A DNA stretch of 64,000 bases from Trichodelitschia bisporula (taxonomy: Eukaryota). Made by a program: the position numbers and the translations under genes. The stretch lies in contig ML996700.1 of NCBI GenBank assembly GCA_010356995.1, positions 310,001-374,000 on the forward strand, in the 5' to 3' direction. Under the pieces are notes generated by a model, which was not told the origin of the DNA, made no database searches, and saw nothing but the letters and a program-made list of their open reading frames with translations. This document shows positions 32,058 through 43,600 of this stretch, one piece after another (position 1 is the first letter of the stretch; each line of letters opens with the position of its first letter).

Positions 32058-35000
32058 GCGTTGGTGGATAGTTGATGGGTTACGGCGTCATGATGGCAAA
32101 ACAAGCGGGCTGGTTTGGTATTACGGCAATTGAGTGATTCTGTATCGTCAAATCCGCAGCCTAAGCAGCGGTCCGAATAGATACTTCAACGGGACCACGA
32201 GGCCAGAATGTTGCCGAAGCACGTCTTCAAACTCGCACAGTGACATCCTTGTAACGAAGCAAATTAAGGCTTTCCACGTGCTCAGCGTGTGGTTCACGTG
32301 TGGTACAGCTGGTGTAGGTTTACCAGGAGCCTTTAGCGATGGGGCCTGCGGCGTTTACGTCGAGGTGAAGTGGCATCGGAGCGGCAGAGTGGAGCAATAT
32401 CCGAAGGTACCTTGAGCTCCCTGCAGACCGACCTCCTCTTTCAGCTCGTCTAATGGCCTGCGTAGCTTGCCGGTACCGTCGCAATGGGACATAATAAGTC
32501 CGACCTTCTTGTGAAATGCCTTTCTCGAGACCGATGGCTTCGCTTTGCCCATTGGGACATGTCGTAAAATTGCCCGGGGATACCCAGCCACGTCTGGGAG
32601 GGGTGATGTATGGGAAATATAGGCGGTCTAATATGGGGAGCCACGTGCGGAAATAGCAATTAGGTACCTGGGGATAGAGTGTTGTTAGACTGGAGGGAAA
32701 TTAGGATGGATCTTCGGTGTTTTCGGGGTCTGGGCAGCGAGAGGTGTTGCACACAAAGGAGTGCCGGCTCGAGGCGGAGGTACTTCGGTTTGCGTGCTCA
32801 TGCTTCCAGCACGTGGGCGGTGGTGTGTACTCCGGTATGTCAGCTTCCTGGCTGGTGGAGTTCTTGAGCGCGGAGGCTTCGAGGCCTTTCAGTCTTGATT
32901 CTCTACTCGCGTCACACATGCAACGGGAAAGGGGGCTTGGATTACATACTCCACATTCGCACAGCAGGTTTGACGAAGTGGGTCAGCAGCAAATGCACGA
33001 TGATTACATTTTGCCACCGGAAGTGGTAGGGGAGAGGATGATGAAGGCGGCGCTTGGAGGTTGGATTGTGCATTTCTGCAGGCGGGATAAGGGCTGGGTG
33101 GGGACGAGGTGCAGATCTCGGAGCGGCGATGGGTCGAGAGCGGCGCTTCTCGTGACGCATAAATGGAATGCGTGGTTTAATTGTGCGCGGCGCGGTTGTG
33201 GGTGCCGCGCGTGCTTGCGATGTTCGTTTATTGCGCTGGTCAAGAGGTCATTCCGACCCCGCGATCAGAGGCGGCTTTGGACGCCTGTCAACCACGCTTT
33301 CTGCTCTTGGCAGACGGCAGCGGGCCGGGATGGCGTCCTCGAGGACGACGATTTTAATGCTTCCTGGCCCTGGCTCGGTCTAGGGAGGTTCTTTTCCCGT
33401 CTTCTTTACGAAGTACTTCTTCTGCTCATCTCAACAGCTTCGACGTTCGAGGCCATGTCACGGGTAACCCCGCTAATCCCGCGCCGAGTCCAGGCGGAGC
33501 CCACACCGTGGCCCCGCCAACATTACGGGCCGGGAACCAAATCGACGCGCCAACGGGCGCCAGCGGAGAGTGGATGCTTCTACGGTAGCTCCGGCATATC
33601 GAGACGACGGAACGGTCAGACGGCGAGCTTGTCGGTCGCTTTCGCGCACTTCCTACATCCAATATCCCAAATTTGAGCACTCTGGAGACCTCGCGTCTCT
33701 GGGCTCACCGACACGGGACCATGGTGACGGCACGATATGCTGCGTGTGGTGGAGAGCCACTCTCTGGCAATCTACTTCATGCCTTCTGTTGAATATTAGA
33801 CCTCGTGTGCGGTGAAGTGGTCTTGAGGCCAAGAGTCCGAGCCCGAGCCGAGATGTTGCATGATCGCCCTTCCGAGAAACGCGCGATAAAAGCCTAAAGC
33901 CAAAGTCTGATGCCGTAAATAAGCGTCCTGGAACCCGCAGGGCTTCATATTGCTGAACCGGATGCGTGCTGTGTCGGCGCTTCGAACCCCTACAGCGTCC
34001 GCCACCCATGCAGCTTCTGTTGATTTAGCGTTAATATTGCGAGGGAAGATTCGTGGTGTGGACACAACTAGCTTTGAACAGTGATGAAATATATCATCTT
34101 ACTGGACGCTCAAGCGGGCCAGCAAAGCACTCCGGTCTCGGAAGGGTTGAGATGCATCAAACTTGCGGGTGAACACGTACCATATCCTCTTGAAACTGAA
34201 AGTCTGGGCATATCCCTCGCGGGAAGCACAATGAAAGCTTCCATTCACACTTTCTCATGGGGATTGAAGGCGTAGTGGGCGGATCCGAACCAGGGACCCC
34301 GGAATAGAGAGAAGAATGGTCACTTCCAAATTAGGCACATGTCGATTGACAACCGACGAGAAGGATTTTGGAATGTCGTGCCCCTTGAGAGAATCAAGCC
34401 CAAGAGCCTTCTATGAGGCCCCACAGTGAAGTCTGTAAGTTAGCGCAATTCCTTCCAGCACCGAGGCCCCAGATAGATCTGTGGGCCGTGATCTCTGCAT
34501 GACCCCAGTTCAACACTTTTTGCGGACGGGGCGGAGGAAGAACTTTGGGGATCCGAAGTTTCAAAGTTGAGCCCGGGCTCTTGAGTTCCTGCGGAGGGAC
34601 GAGGGGTTCTCCGCAATTCGGTGTGCTGTACTCTGTATGACCAGGACACTATCCTGCGAGCTATGTTCAGAGTACATTGGGTCGGTTAGCTCTACCACGT
34701 TTCACGCCGCAGGTGGTGGAGGCCACAGTAGGTGGGGTACATCGGACAGTTGGACTCGCACCGGCGAGGTACTGAACCAATGTTTGAGACGGCTATCCTG
34801 TTGAAAAAGCTGCAGCTCTGAGGCAAGTGCATATATACTGCGACGGTTCGAGTGCTCTGAACAGTCATTTCGTGGGCAACTAAAATTGTTGAGACGGTTT
34901 TGATCGTGGGTTAGGACGACGTCTGGTCCCTACCCACGCTGCAGGCACCACGATGCGCGAGGGCCTGGTTTTTAGGTAGCCCATACATTCCTCCGAGCAG

Positions 35001-37680
35001 GTACACCGCGTGCCTGCCAGGTGCTGTAGTTCCACGTAGTAGTTCTAGGCGGTCCTTGCAAGGTCGGCGGTTGGGTTTGGTGCAGACTGCAAAACGTGCA
35101 GTTCGAGCTTTCCGACCATCAACACATCCCACGCCCACACACCTGCCTGCCGCTTGTGGCTCCCTCACAGGAAGTATTGGAAATTTTGAGCTGGTGACTA
35201 GGCTTGAAGATGTGGGGGGGTGGATAAATTAGTTAGGCTGCATTAAGCCTAAAATACGAAGCAGGGCTTACACAAACACCAGTCCGATGCTGTGGTGTTG
35301 GTTTTGTTGCTTCCCGCGTTTTTATCGTCAGGCACCCACTCTGTCGAACCGCCAGGCTGGATTTTGAGAATTGAGTGTGTGTGGGGAAGCTGCCTGAACG
35401 GGCAGGCGCGGGGGCACATGGTGTCATAGGTCATCGGGAGTCAGACCACAACCCATCGGCCATCAGCGCAGCAAGCACGGCACTCGAGACGAGACGACGG
35501 GGAAGAACGGACCAACAGACTCGCATGCTGCAAGCAGGGCCGCAGCACACCTCACAGGCGGATCTTGGTCATCTTGGGGAGAAGCCTCGAAGGTGATGGC
35601 CGGTGGGCATGGGTTTGTGCGAAGCGTGGAGTGAAGTGAAGTGGAGCGTGGGAGTGGGCGGCGGGGCGTGCAGGCTGCGGGACGAGGCAAATTACGACAT
35701 GGACATCTCATTCGGCGGATCGCGCGCGCAAATCACCTGGTGCGCGCGTGCAAAGAGCGCCGAGATGGTGTGCACAGCGGTGATGGTGATGGTGGTGATG
35801 GTGGTGCGGGCCGAGTGGACTGGCGCGGGAGGCGAGAGGTGTGAGTGTGCGCGTGTGTGGTCTCAAAAAGAGAGGGCGGTGGGAGAAAGCGTTACTTTCC
35901 ACGAGTCCAGTCGCCGAGCAGGCGTTGGCCGAGCTCTTTGGCTGGGTTTTTTGCAACTCGCAGGTTGCGGACCGCGCCAGGCTGGGGTCGACGTTGCTAG
36001 TTGGCCCGGGGGAGCAGTGAGGCAGCAGGAGACATGCTTTACGCAGGTGGGGGACAAGGAGGATCGGTGACAGAGGGGAGAGGGGTGGGCGGCGGCGGCG
36101 GCAATACGTCAAGCTGTCTCTTCGGTAATATTGCATTGGCAGCTTTACTTTCGGAGCGGATGGACGCGCAACTTTGCAACGGGGCGATGTGCGCGAATGA
36201 CTGGCCATACGACTCCGCGTGGCGAGCTGATTGAGGGAGGCAAGGGGAGTTGATGAGAAGAGAGTGGCCGAAGAGCGGGGAAGAGACCGAAAACGCAGTA
36301 ATAATATCGCTTGGCCTAACATACCCTTCCCGACGAGAGCGTTAGGTTGCCGAAAGCCCAAGAAAGACATCGGAAGTTCGCGCGATTCTGCTAACAAAAG
36401 TGACTAGGCTGCGAAATGCAACATCCACCACCCATCCGCACCCATGTCGGCATGTCTCGGGCTTCATTCGTCGGCATGTCGGGCAGGACAAAAGGGCCAA
36501 AAGGCGGAGTGGCCGCTGACTTTACATTATGCTTGCCGCTGGCTGGCCGCTTGTCCTGCTTGCTTGCTGCAGCCAGCAAGCCTGGGCGGCCCGCGCGGGT
36601 CGAATTACTCGTGAGATTTGATTCGCGGGAGAGTAGCGCTTGGACTGTTGAAGAAAGCGGAGAGGCGGATAGTACGGGAGTGCAAAGAGAGGGGTTTGAG
36701 TGACAAGACGCCTCGCCGGTCAGTGATGATATGGACCAGAAATGGAATGGAGATGAAGGTATCGAAGGATGAATGGAGAGATGGGCACGGAGCACTGGGG
36801 GCGAGTGCGGGGGGGGAGGATTAGCGGTTGGGTTGTGCAAGAGAGAGATGACTGCAAAACGTCCTATCCCATCGCCTTCGTCTCCGCGAGGCTAGGAATG
36901 ACATGCAAAGATGGTACATGGAGATTAGCCCACTGCACTGTACACTTATGAGTAATGGAAAGGGTGCCTGGGTGTTGTGTGGTTTGATGAATGAGTACCG
37001 TGACTAGAGAACCTTTTTTTGCTGCCCTTTCTCCGGTCTTTGCGCTCCCTATCTTGAGTGACAGTTTCCACAGTGGAGTCTCTTAGGACAGATGGAGAAA
37101 TCTCAACACTTCAACTGCAGAGAGAATTCGTGCCTTGTTGTGGAGCCCTTTGGGATTTTACACAGTAGTTAGCCGGGGGAAGGGGAAGGAAAGGGAAGCA
37201 GAATGGGGACGGGGATGGAAGGGGACAAGGATAGGCAAGAGGCTTTTTATTTTTTGATGCCGATGCAAAGCGATTTGTGCTTGTCTTGCAGAGAAGGCAC
37301 ACTTCGTGTGGGGAACTGAGGACTGGGAACCTGGGGAGACGTTGCTTGCACTTTGCTTAGGTGAAGAAATGATGGGCCAAGGCAGAAGTGGAGGGAGATG
37401 GAGATGGAGAGAGGAAGAGGGAGAGAGAGAGAGTGTGGGGGTATGATGAAGTTCAGTAAGAGAGTTCAGTATGGGAGCCAGCCTCCTCGCACCAAAACAT
37501 CATGACCACCCCTTGGGTCCATCCCATCCCATCCTCATCGCGCGTACATCCGTAATGATTTTTTTTTCCCTTCCTCATCCCCACGCCCTCACTGGACTGG
37601 ATCTTCGTGCCTACCCTCAAAAATCCTTCCCACCACCAGCCAAGCCGCCCTCCACTCCCCCAATTCAGTCCAATTGAATG

Positions 37681-39191
37681 CACTCCAATCCCAACGCCAT
37701 CAGCCGCCGCTCCCGGGCCCGGCACGCAAATCCCACACCTCCTTCTCCTCCACACACAACCACTCTCATTCATCACACTCCCTCTCCTTCTTTCCCTTTA
37801 CCTCTCTTCTCTCTCCCCTTCATCATTCTCCCGTCCTGGTTCTCCTCCCCTCGACGGGTCTCCTACAATAATCTCTCTCCCGTTTCTCCACCTCTCTAAA
37901 CTCATCGCGCTCCGCGTGTGCCGGGCAGGGAAAACCTTCAATTTCGGCTTGAAAGGGTTTTTTCTTCTCTTCACACATTGCCATCTCCCTGGTCCTGGTC
38001 CAGTTCTTTGCGACCTCCGTCACTACTCTCGCCTCCCGCCATCCGTCCCTCACAGCTTTACAACAATACACCCCCCCCTCCCCACCTCCCCTACCTCTCT
38101 ACTACCCCCAATCCCGAACCCTACCTAGCACGTTAGCTTGTCGGCTGTCACGCCTCTCCAGGCTGACCTGCTCCCCTCGCTGACCCGCTCACCCACTCAC
38201 CCACCCCCGTTAATAGCAACGGCTCGCCACCTGCTGTGATCCGCAGTCTCGAGACTCCCTCCCCTCATCCTCCTTCCGCCAAAACTTCGTCATCAATCGG
38301 CTTCGCGCGCCTTCTTGCTGGAATAACACTGGCATAGATCAGGAACATCTCTTGCTCTTGCCACAAATCCTTTTTGTTCCAGCCGACCGCAGCTTCCCAT
38401 CCTCCACCCCCAGGCAAACTTTCTCTCCCTCCCACTCACCAACCACAATCAGCCTTCTTCTCATCGCCTCCCCCTTCAACGCCTACCCTTCCACTCAGCT
38501 TCAACCGTCATCGCTCCGCCCCTTCGGCTATTCGTCATACGCCTAGTGCAAGCCTTGACCCAAAAGAATTTTCAAACCCATCCACGGTTCATTCCAACGT
38601 TCTTGAACTTCCCCTCACGTTTGGCACCCGCTTCAGACAATTTGTGGTTGTCAGGACACCACCGTCAGCGAACTATTTACTTAGGATCGCTGTTCGCACG
38701 ATAACCCTGGGTGTTCCCCGCTGGTTGCTTGGACCCCCAAGAACTCTTTCGAAGTTTCGCAACTTGACAATACACCGGCCGTTCCTTTGCCGCCTCAAAC
38801 ACCCGAGCAACATCCGACCATTATTCTATTGCTCAGCGTTGCAAATCTTTCAACGCTGCCTATCTCGCGCAGAGACCCAACACCCGACAGGACCCAGCTC
38901 ATATTTGAGAGTGGTTGCCGCCGCTTCCAACAAAAGCTGACTTCTGCCCTTTCCCGCCCTTACCTCACGCAGCAATCTCACCCTAACATCACACTCGCCT
39001 GCTTCCTTCGCATGTCAGACCTTTGCTAGGAGAAGTTGTGTACGGTTCGCAAGGAGCACTTGCTCATCTTCCGCGATCGGAAGTGAAGGAAACGGTAAAC
39101 TCACCCTGCGCGGGTCCGTTGCTGGTTTGACTGACCTGTTAGCGTGTGTTCTCCACACCCGTCTCCTCCTCTCCCTCGCTCCTCGCCCACC
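37681..39191 (+). promoter_or_regulatory. Long pyrimidine-rich putative 5' leader of the CLG1-like gene, with an intron (acceptor 39142) and a 5-codon in-frame ORF MSDLC (39012-39029)
   Basis: No ATG found by eye in 37681-39011. Branch and acceptor CTGACCTGTTAG ends at 39142. Candidate donors at 39083 (GTGAAG) and 39095 (GTAAAC). The transcription start is unknown. Confidence 0.6.
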
Positions 39192-40646
39192 ATGCCTCTC
39201 ATGGGTATGCATCAGCCGCCGACGCCTCCCGAGGTGATCTTTTCCCAGAGTGCATGCGCACCGATGCACTATGGACCGCCTCGATGGACCCCTCAAGAAG
39301 GCGCCGTACGGCGCGACGATGCGGGATTTGACTACACCACGCGTTACGGACAGCAACAATGTCAACAGCCGCCTCAACAAGCTTCTGTCCCGACCTGGGC
39401 TAGCGTCGTTGCATTACCTCCTGTCGATAGCGCACCCGCCTCGCGCATACCCTCCTACGAGCTGCCGGCTCTTGCCACTCAGCAGCAATCGCAGCATCGT
39501 ACGCAAGAGTCTCGTCCATCCTACGAGCAGCAGCAGCAACCGGCCAAGGAAGAGAAGCCCGTTGGCGGAGTTTCTGCGAAGCTTGACTACGAAATGGACT
39601 GGATGACGGACTTCGTAGCCGAGTCAGCACATCAGATGTATGCCCTTAGCCGGTCTCCCCTGGTTTTGGCAGATATTGACTTAGTTCGAAGCATCATGCC
39701 TGGCAAGTCACATCATCAGGATCCGCGCGAGTTCCACGAGTTCCGCCAGTGGGTGCATCAGGTGCTGTGTGCCACTCGGCTTCCAGCATCGACCATCATG
39801 ATGAGCCTGGGGTACCTGTCCCTCCGACTCGCGAAGCAGCAGCATCTCTCGAGCCCACAAAAGGATCTTCAGATTCATCACCATGTTACGGTTGCCCTAA
39901 TTTTGGGGAGTAAGTTCTTGGATGATAACACCTTTGTCAATCGCTCGTGGTCCGATGTCAGCAACATCCAAGTCACTCTGCTGAATCAGCTTGAGCGCGA
40001 TTGGCTTGCGTCCATCGACTACAAGCTCCATCATCTGAGCGACGACAATCAGGGCTTCAAGCTATGGCTCTCACGATGGAAAGACTTCGAGAACCAGGCG
40101 CTCTCTCGCGGCTCACGCGCTTTCAAGCTCAGCCCGATTGACACCAACGTGACGAAGATGTCGGCTAGCTACTACAGCAAGCCGCCGACTCCAAATAGCG
40201 CGCATTTGACCTTCCAGGGCCCCATACCCCAGGAGCTTGTGTCGCGTCCCCAGACTCGCTACCATACCCCCGTCTACTCGCAATATGACCCCTGGCTGGT
40301 TCCGCGCTCGGCAAATGAGAACTCACCTGCCTCGGCTCCGCATACTGGTCCGACGACCCCAGAGTATTATGGCGGACCTGGCACCTGGGGTCCTCAAGCC
40401 TTTGTTCCTAGGCGTCCTACCTACGGATTCGGGCCTGTCGCACAGCCTCAGGCGCAGCAAGGCCATGCTCAGCCACAGCCACAGTCCGCGAACAGCACGT
40501 ATGCCCACACGCCCTTCACGCCAGTATACAACCACCACGCTTGGGCTCCGGCGCATGGCATGGGTTGCATGTGCTCGTACTGCAACCGCCAGCAGATTCC
40601 GTGGTTTGCACCCAGCTACAACAATATGCTGGCCGTTGCCGTTTAG
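39192..40646 (+). CDS. CLG1: Pho85-type cyclin, CLG1-like (the true start may be 39012; see findings)
   Basis: Motifs GGVSAKLDYEMDWMTDFVAE, FRQWVHQVLCATRLPASTI, ALILGSKFLDDNTFVNRSWSDVS and LERDWLASIDYKL. P/Q-rich flanks and a C-terminal CxCxxC. ATG 39192 is in ACCATG context. Confidence 0.88.
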   Translation: MPLMGMHQPPTPPEVIFSQSACAPMHYGPPRWTPQEGAVRRDDAGFDYTTRYGQQQCQQPPQQASVPTWASVVALPPVDSAPASRIPSYELPALATQQQSQHRTQESRPSYEQQQQPAKEEKPVGGVSAKLDYEMDWMTDFVAESAHQMYALSRSPLVLADIDLVRSIMPGKSHHQDPREFHEFRQWVHQVLCATRLPASTIMMSLGYLSLRLAKQQHLSSPQKDLQIHHHVTVALILGSKFLDDNTFVNRSWSDVSNIQVTLLNQLERDWLASIDYKLHHLSDDNQGFKLWLSRWKDFENQALSRGSRAFKLSPIDTNVTKMSASYYSKPPTPNSAHLTFQGPIPQELVSRPQTRYHTPVYSQYDPWLVPRSANENSPASAPHTGPTTPEYYGGPGTWGPQAFVPRRPTYGFGPVAQPQAQQGHAQPQPQSANSTYAHTPFTPVYNHHAWAPAHGMGCMCSYCNRQQIPWFAPSYNNMLAVAV

Positions 40647-43600
40647 ATCTTACGGTCGTTCACGGTCCTTCCCTGGTTCTACCATGTGTGTGGTTTACCC
40701 GAGGCCTTTTCCAGGCCATCGGGCTCCACTCTCTGCTAGAGTCACCCTTTTCCCTGTCGGATATCCCAAAAGTCGATTTTGTGCATTACTAAAAGCGGTT
40801 CCAATTGAGTCCGGCGCTAATACGATGCGAATACCCTTTGTTCTCGGGTTGCCACTGGCCATTTCGATATCATTTCCACGCGTCACGATTCTCTTGCGGT
40901 GGCGTACTGAGCAGCATATTTCACGCGGCTTCAATCGAGTCGGGTGGCTTTCTCTTCTGCACAAAATTCCCCTTCTGCATGTTAGATATTTCCCTTATGC
41001 GTTTCTGCTGGCTTATTGTGCCTGGGTTATCGGTGTCGACAGTTTATAGACCATTTGATTTGCAGGACCTGGGTTTCACGGTTCACGGGAGTTCATCGGG
41101 CTCTTCCATACTTACGGCTTATGGGGAGCGCATGTTCGATTTGTTTTTTTGGACCGGGTTTATGCATACGGTCGGGATTGCTTTGGTTTTAAAGCAGCTT
41201 CTGTGTTTATGGGCTGGCTGTTCCCCGGGGTTTGCTTGATGACTTCTCACCATCGTTCCGGGCCATGTTTCGGGTGCCCCCAAAAACATTTGTCGTTTGT
41301 CCGGCCTGTTTGTTTGTACCGCCTTAGGGCCCGGACATCTCCTTTCGCTGTCTCTGAGCATTTGCATCTAGAATGGGGGCTTGTTACGACTTTTTCATCT
41401 GATATCCTCACGAAAGCGGGAAATCGGACGCTGGTCGGCTATCTGTTGGGAGGCGATCGGGACATTTGCACATTATTCTTGTCCACACACTTTGTGCATT
41501 CGAACATAGGCCGAGGGCGGCATTGGTTTACGTTTTTAGGCTGAACAAGCTTGACACTGGGGACAGGCTCTGGGTATGTGAGGGGTGGAAGGAGGTTTGA
41601 AATGGATACAGCTTTAATGCACAGACCCACATCATTCTTCGGAGGCGGTCACATTCTTCGAGTCGCGGCTGGTTCTTCTGTCAGCCTGTTATTTCATCGG
41701 CGTGGAACAGACTAGCTTTGGCGCGGGGATCCGATGAAGAAAAGTTTTGCTGGGAGGGCTTGGGTTCTTTTGCTTATGTGGGGGGATATCCGCATTGGCG
41801 AGGGTTTGGCTGAGGGATCTCTCGGCAGGATAGAGGAGTTGCATGGACTGGGGAGATACTGTGCATACTACGTAAAAATTATACAGATGATGGCCGCGAG
41901 GTTGGCGTTCGCCATTCACGTACCTCATCATTGGGTTCTCCTCATTCTTGGACCGGTGTGAAGCTGACGTCAGGTTGACTTGATTCTGCTTGCATGCCTA
42001 GCACTTGCTAATAAGGGACGATATGTTGGCACCGTACTGTCAGCCTTGGGCAGGGTAGGGGGGAAGTTGTCGTTCATCTCCGCTAACAAAAGCAGGAACG
42101 ACGTCGGTTTCGTTACCCGTAGCGCTTAGCCCCGGATACTTCAGCCGCGGAATTCGTACATGCTATGACCGGGTTGCGCCTGTCGGGCTGGGCGCTGGAG
42201 ACACGATAACCACGGTGGACAATGGAGCTGCCTGCTAGCAATACGGACTTTGATCTTGGTTGACGCTTCCTTCAGCGCCGTGTCAGGGTCGAAGCACCAG
42301 GCCCATGCCGATTCTCCAGGGCAGAGGAGAAGTACCTCACGAGGAACTTTTCAAATGAGACCCGATCCTTGACATGTGTCTGAAAGGGTGTAAGAGTGGA
42401 GGACCTGCGTTTATTGTCGTGCGTTACAATACTAGGACGATGCTTTCAAGCTAGCCCGCCATTATGATGGAAGGCTTGAAGATTATGTTTTTCTCGCGTC
42501 TCCGAACGAATGTTAAATCAGTTACGGGGCCACTTTCCCTTCATATGAGCGAAAGGTTTCCTGCTCTATCCCGGGGATTTGGTCGTCTGCGCCCATCCTG
42601 GCCGCAATAGTGCATGGTATACCGGCCACTTGGAAAACTCCTACTCGGGGCCGCAGGAAGTGAAGGAATTCTGGTCTTCGAGGTTAGAACTGATTCGGCG
42701 CCAGGACCGGTTCCCCGGTCGAGTATGGATCCGAGGAGCCGCGAATAGTTCCTGAGAATCAGCGAGACTGATCTGAGAGTTATGGATATTTTGAGTTTGG
42801 TCCGGGAAGAACTTGAGCCGCCGCAGCATACCACCGAGCTCGCGAACGATCATCCTGGTATCCAGATTCATTCCCCATCTGTCGGGATGGAGGGGAAGAG
42901 TCCAGAAGAGCGTTCATAAACTCCATCATCAAGGGTGGAAGGTCAGTGAATTGTCCGAAGCACTTGCTCTCCGATAGGGAGTGCTAAGCCGTTGATCGCG
43001 TTCTGCCTCCAAGGTACCCATACGTCATCGCTTCATGAGTTGACCGGAGCATAGACGTGACAGCAAGAGAGCAGAGCTCCTTCAAAGCACCGCCCGACCC
43101 ATCCCCTATTCGCCTGAATTAACACAGGCCTGGACTTCACTGGTCGTCAGACAGTATACATCATCTGGCCTCACTCCGGCGGTACAGGGCACCATGACTG
43201 ACGATTTGGGAGGCTCATCGGCATGTGGAATAACCTTTCCAATGAGAAGGAGCGTGATGTGACTGTACGACTGAGGACTATGTGATAGTTGTGGCAGCGG
43301 GCCAGGTTTGCTGCGATCTTCAGGATAGAAGTCGGTACTCCAATAGAAGGTGATGAGAATGAATTGCATGAATTTCATGAAGGGAGGTTATGAGTTTACC
43401 GAATCTTCGCTGGAGCAGATAGACCGGAGCTCGTGCAAGATCCGCGTCGTTTCTGCCCTCGGAGCGTCGAAAGGGAGACCCGAGCGAAAAAGCTCTTTGC
43501 GGGTCCTTGGGAAGACCATACGGTAGTTTCACCTTAGGGCTGCAGAATTCGATAGTTGTATCGCCGGAGCGACATGGTACGACATCTCGCTCCCTAAGGC

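Follow-up and report, generated by a model that had tools for sequence, protein, structure and literature searches.

In Saccharomyces cerevisiae, a short upstream open reading frame (uORF) in the leader of CLN3 limits translation of this G1 cyclin at low ribosome availability, as described in a passage of PMC10647266. Here we analyze the leader of another fungal cyclin gene, which encodes a Clg1-like cyclin in Trichodelitschia bisporula, a Dothideomycete of the order Phaeotrichales. The gene lies on a 64,000-nucleotide (nt) stretch of contig ML996700.1 (assembly GCA_010356995.1, positions 310,001 to 374,000, forward strand), which we call the window and whose own numbering is used throughout. 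An initial annotation had pointed out that the first AUG of the leader, at 39012, is in frame with the cyclin and blocked by a UAG, and had considered either recoding of this stop codon or a uORF. Our analysis makes it very likely that ATG 39012 opens a genuine, stop-terminated uORF of five codons, and that this uORF belongs to an old cis-regulatory module within a long, otherwise AUG-free leader.

The arrangement resembles that of CLN3 in that a short uORF lies in a long cyclin leader and in that cyclin output may be linked to translational capacity. The likeness is one of logic, and the cyclin families differ: Cln3 is a Cdk1 cyclin, whereas the protein described here is a PHO80-type Pho85/Cdk5 cyclin. 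Moreover, the uORF is accompanied here by two conserved hairpins and a leader intron, the arrangement is conserved across classes, and its function is one that we infer. For uORF1 of GCN4 and the uORF of YAP1, a section of PMC3131280 reports that resumed scanning after a very short uORF depends on conserved sequence and structure in the flanks and on the intercistronic distance. The Clg1 uORF is similar to these two: it has 3-5 codons, its flanks are conserved, and so is its spacing of approximately 110 nt. GCN4, however, has four uORFs instead of one, and its conserved structures lie upstream of the uORF, whereas those found here lie mainly downstream. Dependence on eIF3a and the response to starvation belong to the comparison with GCN4, and not to the Clg1 uORF as it is known from its sequence. 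Conserved-peptide uORFs, such as the one for the fungal arginine attenuator peptide, work by stalling the ribosome with a conserved peptide at least about 20 residues long. Conservation across fungal classes is common to both, but the peptide of the Clg1 uORF has only 3-5 residues, of which only Ser2 is semi-conserved (26 of 42 leaders).

A five-codon uORF in the leader of the cyclin gene

The following features of the window, all on the + strand, define the gene and its leader:

37681-39011, + strand: ATG-free, C-rich 5' leader or upstream region, covered by RNA contigs; the same depletion is seen in relatives
39012-39029, + strand: five-codon uORF (MSDLC, then stop) with C at -3, inside the transcript; homologous uORFs in relatives
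39084-39086, + strand: second in-frame stop codon, TGA, retained in the mature leader
39095-39142, + strand: intron of 48 nt in the 5' untranslated region (UTR), GTAAAC...CTGAC...TTAG, seen in RNA contigs X1 and X2; intron at the same place in relatives
39192-40646, + strand: Clg1-like (PHO80-type) cyclin open reading frame (ORF) with A at -3 and an in-frame intron of 54 nt at 39638-39691

The upstream ATG (uATG; uAUG in the RNA) at 39012 lies 180 nt 5' of ATG 39192 and in the same frame, and the sequence ATG TCA GAC CTT TGC TAG ends with the stop codon at 39027-39029. Upstream of it, the + strand has no ATG for 1334 nt (37678 to 39012). This is the longest such gap in the 64-kb window, the next one being 555 nt, and between 6.8 (first-order Markov) and 9.5 (mononucleotide) ATGs would be expected in a stretch of this composition (C 543, T 339, A 254, G 196). 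The initial annotation had already noted an ATG-free region of about 1.3 kb, and the positions that it gave for ATG 39012, TAG 39027, TGA 39084, the end of the intron acceptor at 39142 and ATG 39192 were all borne out by the sequence, that of the acceptor also by the RNA contigs.

ATG 39192 opens an ORF of 484 codons that matches the Pfam family Cyclin (PF08613) at E 1.6e-6, its 29.1 bits exceeding the cut-off of 21. Relatives with names, from Plenodomus and Penicillium, are annotated as 'Cyclin-like protein (Clg1)'. By its domain and the annotation of its relatives, the product is assigned as a PHO80-type (Pho85/Cdk5) cyclin of the Clg1 group. A search at E <= 0.001 yielded 576 homologs, and N-termini were judged on the 120 that were listed. 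Eighty of these 120 start with MP[SAT]F. In seven others this motif is slightly internal, in models called too far upstream whose extensions are mutually unrelated, and the remaining 33 are shorter models with a later Met as start. When the window protein is aligned with 20 homologs, all 21 sequences share M1 and P2 of the ORF at 39192, with P12 and P13 (..TPPE) following. Because the Met-Pro N-terminus is invariant among the aligned homologs, we regard ATG 39192 as the ancestral start. Its -3 base is A, compared with C at uATG 39012.

Transcripts were available as assembled contigs from two runs (X1 and X2) of one sample in one study. We take these contigs to be RNA because they contain two GT..AG joints that DNA would not show. 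The X1 contig, with 4827 nt, spans 36967-41895, the X2 contig spans 38951-40119, and both lack the introns of 48 nt and 54 nt. Since these spliced contigs cover 39012, the AUG at this position is part of the mRNA. The leader joint, 39094 to 39143, is present in one contig of each run. A second possible donor at 39083, with an intron of 60 nt, would have left TAG 39027 as the only block in the frame, as had been suggested; it is found in none of the X1 and X2 contigs, though contigs drop rare variants. With donor 39095 in use, the in-frame TGA at 39084 stays in the mature leader, and thus two stop codons block the frame. Translated in silico, the spliced leader reads MSDLC-stop-EKLCTVRKEHLLIFRDRK-stop-RKRVCSPHPSPPLPRSSPTM, with both stops preceding the cyclin start. 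In the spliced leader the uORF stop and the main AUG are 114 nt apart, and the uORF does not overlap the cyclin ORF.

Conservation of the uORF among relatives

A scan of metagenome contigs identified 80 loci that encode relatives with 34-51% identity. A first pattern recognized the conserved start in 49 of the 81 sources (window included), and a relaxed search found it in 19 further loci with sufficient upstream DNA, 17 of which were taken further. Loci that begin inside the gene or have less than about 140 nt of upstream sequence were left out (L018, L030, L031, L055, L080, and contigs with a match from base 1-170). After near-identical leaders had been merged, 36 representatives were obtained, and 42 after 12 more distant lineages had been added.

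A uORF of 3-7 codons is present in 40 of these 42 representative leaders. Five codons are by far the most frequent length (26 leaders), followed by four (9) and three (3), with one case each of six and seven codons and two of 15-16. Among the first 36 representatives, 30 have at least 235 nt of upstream sequence, and 29 of these have a uORF of 3-6 codons beginning 123-233 nt 5' of the main ATG; the exception, L003, has a uORF of 15 codons at the same place. Every one of the 42 leaders has a pyrimidine at -3 of the uATG (T in 32, C in 10). The stop is TAG in 32, TAA in 7 and TGA in 3, so the position remains a stop while its nucleotides change. Codon 2 encodes Ser in 26 of the 42 uORFs and is drawn from both AGY and TCN. 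Conservation of the peptide beyond this was not found in the 42 leaders: residues 3-5 vary freely and only Met-Ser recurs.

Could such a frame be a chance, neutral upstream ATG without function? About one in four ATGs opens a frame this short: of 135 ATGs located more than 260 nt upstream, which served as a control, 33 (24%) open frames of at most 5 codons. Chance does not account, however, for a position, a length, a weak context and a spacing that are kept in 40 of 42 leaders and in at least three classes. This conservation refutes the chance explanation, to which we give almost no credence. The zone from -1000 to -260 of 36 leaders contains 17 ATGs, compared with 121.3 expected over 18,280 nt. 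Since ATGs are purged elsewhere in the leader but the uATG is retained, leader ATGs are under selection.

Spacing, reading frame and recoding of the stop codon

The distance from the uATG to the main ATG is 123-134 nt in short, transcript-like contigs and 176-233 nt in genomic contigs. L005 and L006, at 130 nt, have the same sequence as L007, at 220 nt, except for a GT..AG stretch of 90 nt that only L007 contains, and the leader intron takes the same position in the window and in these relatives (spliced in L005 and L006, unspliced in L007). We compared 19 spliced leaders, from which predicted introns had been taken out in silico, the intron of the window being the one with RNA support. In 17 of the 19, the uORF stop and the main ATG are 105-116 nt apart. 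Relative to the main ORF, the uORF is in frame 0 in six of these leaders, in frame 1 in five and in frame 2 in eight. Because the frame varies among relatives while the spacing is kept, the shared frame of uORF and cyclin ORF in T. bisporula is, on this comparison, a coincidence.

This result bears directly on the idea that UAG 39027 is edited (adenosine-to-inosine, A-to-I, UAG to UGG) or read through, giving an N-extended cyclin. That idea draws on the single frame shared by the uAUG and the cyclin ORF, in the genome as well as in the spliced leader, and on UAG being the commonest uORF stop (32 of 42). Sexual-stage A-to-I editing of UAG to UGG does exist in Fusarium graminearum (AMD1, DBF2), according to passages of PMC5496914 and PMC13123824, and there, too, the UAG is in frame with a downstream ORF. 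In those F. graminearum genes, however, the stop falls within or at the end of a coding frame that is conserved, whereas in the Clg1 leader the stretch past the stop is non-coding and shows no conservation of frame, there is a second stop further on, and the host belongs to another class. That second stop, TGA 39084, stays in the mature leader, and the sequence beyond TAG 39027 is conserved as hairpins and not as codons. The frame relation varies, as described above (6/5/8 of 19). Seven of the 42 uORFs end with TAA, from which no single edit gives a sense codon, and TGG is found at the homologous stop in none of the 42. A place for this TAG at a conserved Trp, as had been considered, is thus not supported. 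An N-terminus of the form MSD[L/V]CW..LC..RK had been put forward for some Pezizomycotina Clg1 proteins; neither this motif nor an extension occurs in the 120 listed homologs, none of which starts with MSD or contains MSD[LV]C, CW..LC or LC..RK. Nor is there a sign that the uORF is a former N-terminus; all relatives examined have it as a uORF. T. bisporula is a Dothideomycete, and the literature passage on A-to-I editing reports none in that class. Altogether, these sequence comparisons bring recoding close to refutation, and for practical purposes we regard the idea as refuted, with a barely perceptible chance left to it.

A related proposal is that stage-specific editing of the UAG switches the length of the uORF. 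The next in-frame stop in the window is 19 codons further on, and editing would yield a uORF of 24 codons ending at TGA 39084 with altered reinitiation. The predominance of UAG noted above speaks for such a switch as well, but lineages with TAA and TGA exist, the downstream frame is not conserved, and the passage on editing contains no report of mRNA editing for Dothideomycetes. The X1 and X2 contigs show no other letter at 39028 or elsewhere on the stretch, which argues only weakly against editing of either kind: contigs lose rare variants, and these come from a sample of unspecified growth stage. We consider a length switch very improbable. The preferred reading remains that of a short uORF that is terminated where its stop codon stands.

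Hairpins downstream of the uORF

Between the uORF and the main AUG, two hairpins can be recognized:

39054-39065, + strand: hairpin 1, GAGCACTTGCTC (GAGC-N4-GCTC), beginning 24 nt after the uORF stop
39073-39094, + strand: predicted 5' half of hairpin 2, up to the exon end, from the fold of the spliced leader
39143-39186, + strand: predicted 3' half of hairpin 2, ending 6 nt 5' of the main AUG, from the same fold

Hairpin 1 is located approximately 20-25 nt past the uORF stop. In 22 of the 42 leaders, the 70 nt that follow the stop contain the exact GAGC/GCTC motif with a loop of 3-6 nt; at the background rate (75 occurrences in 450,786 nt), a stretch of 70 nt would hold 0.0116. A fifth base pair is G-C, A-U or C-G, depending on the lineage, and is mismatched in a few.

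Hairpin 2 is built of three stems: GCGG/CUGC on the outside, GAAC/GUUC in the middle and GAAGAGACUG/CAGUCUCUUC, with variants, on the inside. The leader intron lies at the apical part, which is completed only once this intron is removed. The region from hairpin 1 to the main AUG folds in this way in all 19 spliced leaders, with -15.6 to -32.9 kcal/mol and z-scores of -1.2 to -5.0 (mononucleotide shuffles). The window has a divergent version, for which the in-silico spliced fold gives -24.5 kcal/mol and a z-score of -3.5 (mononucleotide shuffles). When dinucleotide shuffles were used, all ten natural spliced leaders folded with -15 to -28 kcal/mol and z-scores of -3.5 to -5.6, and for nine of the ten, none of 200 shuffles folded as well.

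MAFFT with RNAalifold placed the 3' arm wrongly and retrieved no more than the outer and middle stems; for hairpin 2, a covariance model was therefore built from two sequences and a hand-written structure. In 450,786 nt, searched on both strands, this model gave 12 matches at E <= 1, all of them directly 5' of a cyclin start and two bridging the unspliced intron. In the resulting alignment 93.8% of the cells are paired, compared with at most 51.2% when the partners are slid. Four pairs are changed on both sides (compensatory), a number that 2 of 500 shuffles attain. There are also several G-U pairs, in keeping with the sense strand. This covariation is supportive and not decisive, since the model itself shaped the alignment and the helix core is conserved in sequence. 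In Rfam, the region 36900-39400 gave a single match at chance level (E=1), on the other strand and away from the module.

Two further pairings were considered. The sequence GUGCAUG at the uAUG is complementary to CAUGCCG at the main AUG, and RNAalifold pairs the two in nine of nine natural spliced leaders (columns 48-55 with 190-196 of alignment A2), GCAUG at the uAUG and CAUGC at the main AUG being joined with 7 pairs. This complementarity may be a trivial effect of two conserved start contexts, or it may represent a helix that closes the leader. A pairing of the uORF start, AUGAGCG, with CGCUCA of hairpin 1 was rejected, as single-sequence folds were inconsistent and the window does not have it.

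The conserved block might instead be a recognition element in RNA or DNA, composed of a protein site and hairpins, within which ATG...TAG is never translated and is a by-product of conservation. Within the core group, the uATG does have flanks with conservation at the nucleotide level (yTTTGTGC ATG AGC G.., with final codons ..T TnY TAG), the GAGC-N4-GCTC palindrome could equally be the binding site of a dimer, and the weak context of the uAUG would let many ribosomes skip it. Against this, the inner codons are free, while the length of the frame is held at 3-5 codons even in distant lineages with other flanks, and the stop alternates between TAG, TAA and TGA and yet remains a stop in 40 of 42 leaders. 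Ser2 is encoded by two unrelated codon families, and the uATG is kept in a leader otherwise purged of ATGs (17 against 121 expected). An untranslated recognition element is therefore improbable in our view, though less so than the other alternatives; a translated uORF agrees better with what is conserved.

Breadth across fungal classes

The module is found beyond the Dothideomycetes. The protein of L036, whose uORF encodes MSFN and ends with TAG, falls, at 90% identity, into one cluster with Clg1 proteins from several species of Penicillium (Eurotiomycetes). That of L033, with a uORF encoding MTTN and ending with TAA, is in a cluster (at least 90%) with Pleopsidium flavum (Lecanoromycetes). 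L077, whose N-terminus resembles those of L034 and L036, has the uORF, the GAGC/GCTC motif and a hairpin of -27.5 kcal/mol with a related core. From these assignments, the module seems to be older than the divergence of Dothideomycetes, Eurotiomycetes and Lecanoromycetes.

The module comprises five parts: a uAUG in weak context (pyrimidine at -3); a frame of 3-5 codons, often starting with Met-Ser; the GAGC/GCTC hairpin approximately 20-25 nt past the stop; a stable hairpin with arms flanking the conserved leader intron; and a main AUG in strong context approximately 105-116 nt past the stop.

Several observations weigh against this reading. The uATG in each relative leader was chosen by hand, and the counts overstate the number of independent events because the loci from metagenome contigs share kinship. 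Additional ATGs occur in the near zone of L004 (at 95), L014 (at 94), L034 (at 69), L037 (at 83), L038 (at 111 and 200) and L078 (at 80); most are at or inside the predicted intron, and those of L004, L014 and L038 (111) are within a donor GTATG. L019 has a second uORF of 32 codons. In L003 and L037, the early stop is lost and the homologous uATG opens uORFs of 15 and 16 codons. The exact motif of hairpin 1 was not found in 20 of the 42 leaders. The covariance model has no match at the window's own hairpin 2, which comes from the spliced fold alone, and hairpin 2 shows modest covariation, its core being conserved in sequence. Finally, the RNA is from a single sample in a single study, and its nature as RNA is judged from the spliced joints.

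With regard to the two long uORFs, that of L003 (380-427) has its new stop inside a remnant of hairpin 1, and the uATG of L037 is 188 nt before its start codon.

Gene model and transcript ends

Both the start codon and the coding intron of the deposited gene model are corrected here. The ORF of the window and the deposited T. bisporula protein are identical at 453 of 453 aligned positions. The deposited protein begins at ATG 39207 (MHQPP...), five codons past ATG 39192. Judged by the invariant Met-Pro, which aligns to 39192, and by the A at -3, this start is probably five codons too late. Within the coding region, the RNA contigs of both runs have an in-frame unit of 54 nt spliced out (39638-39691, GT..AG, phase 2). 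The deposited model leaves out 78 nt instead (26 amino acids, 39663-39740), and no RNA contig shows that omission.

The 54-nt stretch is itself open in frame. Approximately half of the aligned homolog models keep the equivalent conserved stretch (..MYxLxxSxICLADIDxxxS..) and half skip it, and the cyclin ORF is uninterrupted in all 19 relatives checked. The stretch 39638-39691 may be a conserved choice between splicing and retention of an intron ('exitron').

As for the ends of the transcript, the depth of X2 climbs about tenfold, from approximately 900 to approximately 10,000, in the bin 38309-38509. This hints at a main transcription start near 38309-38509, with transcription at a lower level farther 5'; the 5' ends themselves are not visible in contigs. 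At the other end, the transcript contig extends approximately 1250 nt beyond the stop codon (40647-41895), with depth falling after approximately 41926, which corresponds to a very long 3'UTR. Upstream of the cyclin gene, the region 34000-37700 has no convincing gene-like ORF of at least 90 amino acids. RNA contigs cover 36500-37700, and the depth of X1 jumps at approximately 36970. The RNA from 36500-37700 could be an upstream non-coding transcript or stem from a minor, far-upstream start.

Discussion

The conserved arrangement indicates that the uORF and the hairpins are probably an old translational control element. In the mechanism that we propose, part of the scanning 43S complexes would bypass the weak uAUG, while others would translate the tiny uORF and terminate at the UAG. 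After so short a uORF, 40S subunits could resume scanning. They would then have to pass the predicted hairpins and reacquire the ternary complex with initiator tRNA within approximately 110 nt, a hairpin of -20 to -28 kcal/mol among them, in order to start at 39192. Cyclin synthesis might thereby be tied to translational capacity or to the nutrient state, and, in the manner of GCN4 uORF1, to distance and to cis elements in the flanks. The initial annotation had offered, as an alternative to recoding, a five-codon uORF that controls initiation at 39192; the uORF itself has turned out to be deeply conserved, and its control of the cyclin is what we infer.

The module may repress, buffer or protect translation under stress, effects between which the sequence does not discriminate. 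A single uORF directly before the main ORF predicts repression or buffering and not induction of the GCN4 type. Part of PMC6033536 describes a model in which a single uORF stress-protects translation. More tentatively, and with more doubt than confidence, we suggest that the uORF, the GAGC/GCTC hairpin and the hairpin at the exon junction form an ancient gate on the Clg1 cyclin. Such a gate would be older than the split of the three classes, would sense initiation capacity (the eIF2 ternary complex or the supply of helicase) and would couple splicing of the leader to translation. It could be a fungus-wide counterpart of the control of CLN3 for a cyclin of the nutrient-signalling CDK5/Pho85. 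The coupling of leader splicing to translation through hairpin 2 is speculation.

We found no description of a uORF in the Clg1 leader in the open-access full-text literature or in bioRxiv. To our knowledge, few fungal uORFs are conserved across classes, and the known ones act mostly through their peptides. The Clg1 uORF appears to belong to the conserved regulatory uORFs with flanking structure, ordinary in principle and unusual in how deeply and in how much detail it is conserved. It is a minimal uORF with conserved weak start context, spacing and downstream structure, in the leader of a nutrient-responsive Pho85/Cdk5 cyclin. The analysis also removes a candidate for stop-codon recoding that was tempting but wrong, and the case illustrates that a uAUG may share the frame of the main ORF, with a UAG after it, by pure coincidence. 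The module is open to direct study in Penicillium or Aspergillus. The Pho85/Cdk5-type cyclin-dependent kinase governs nutrient responses, lifespan and meiosis in yeasts, according to a passage of the literature; if the proposed control is true, translational capacity would be linked to this kinase.

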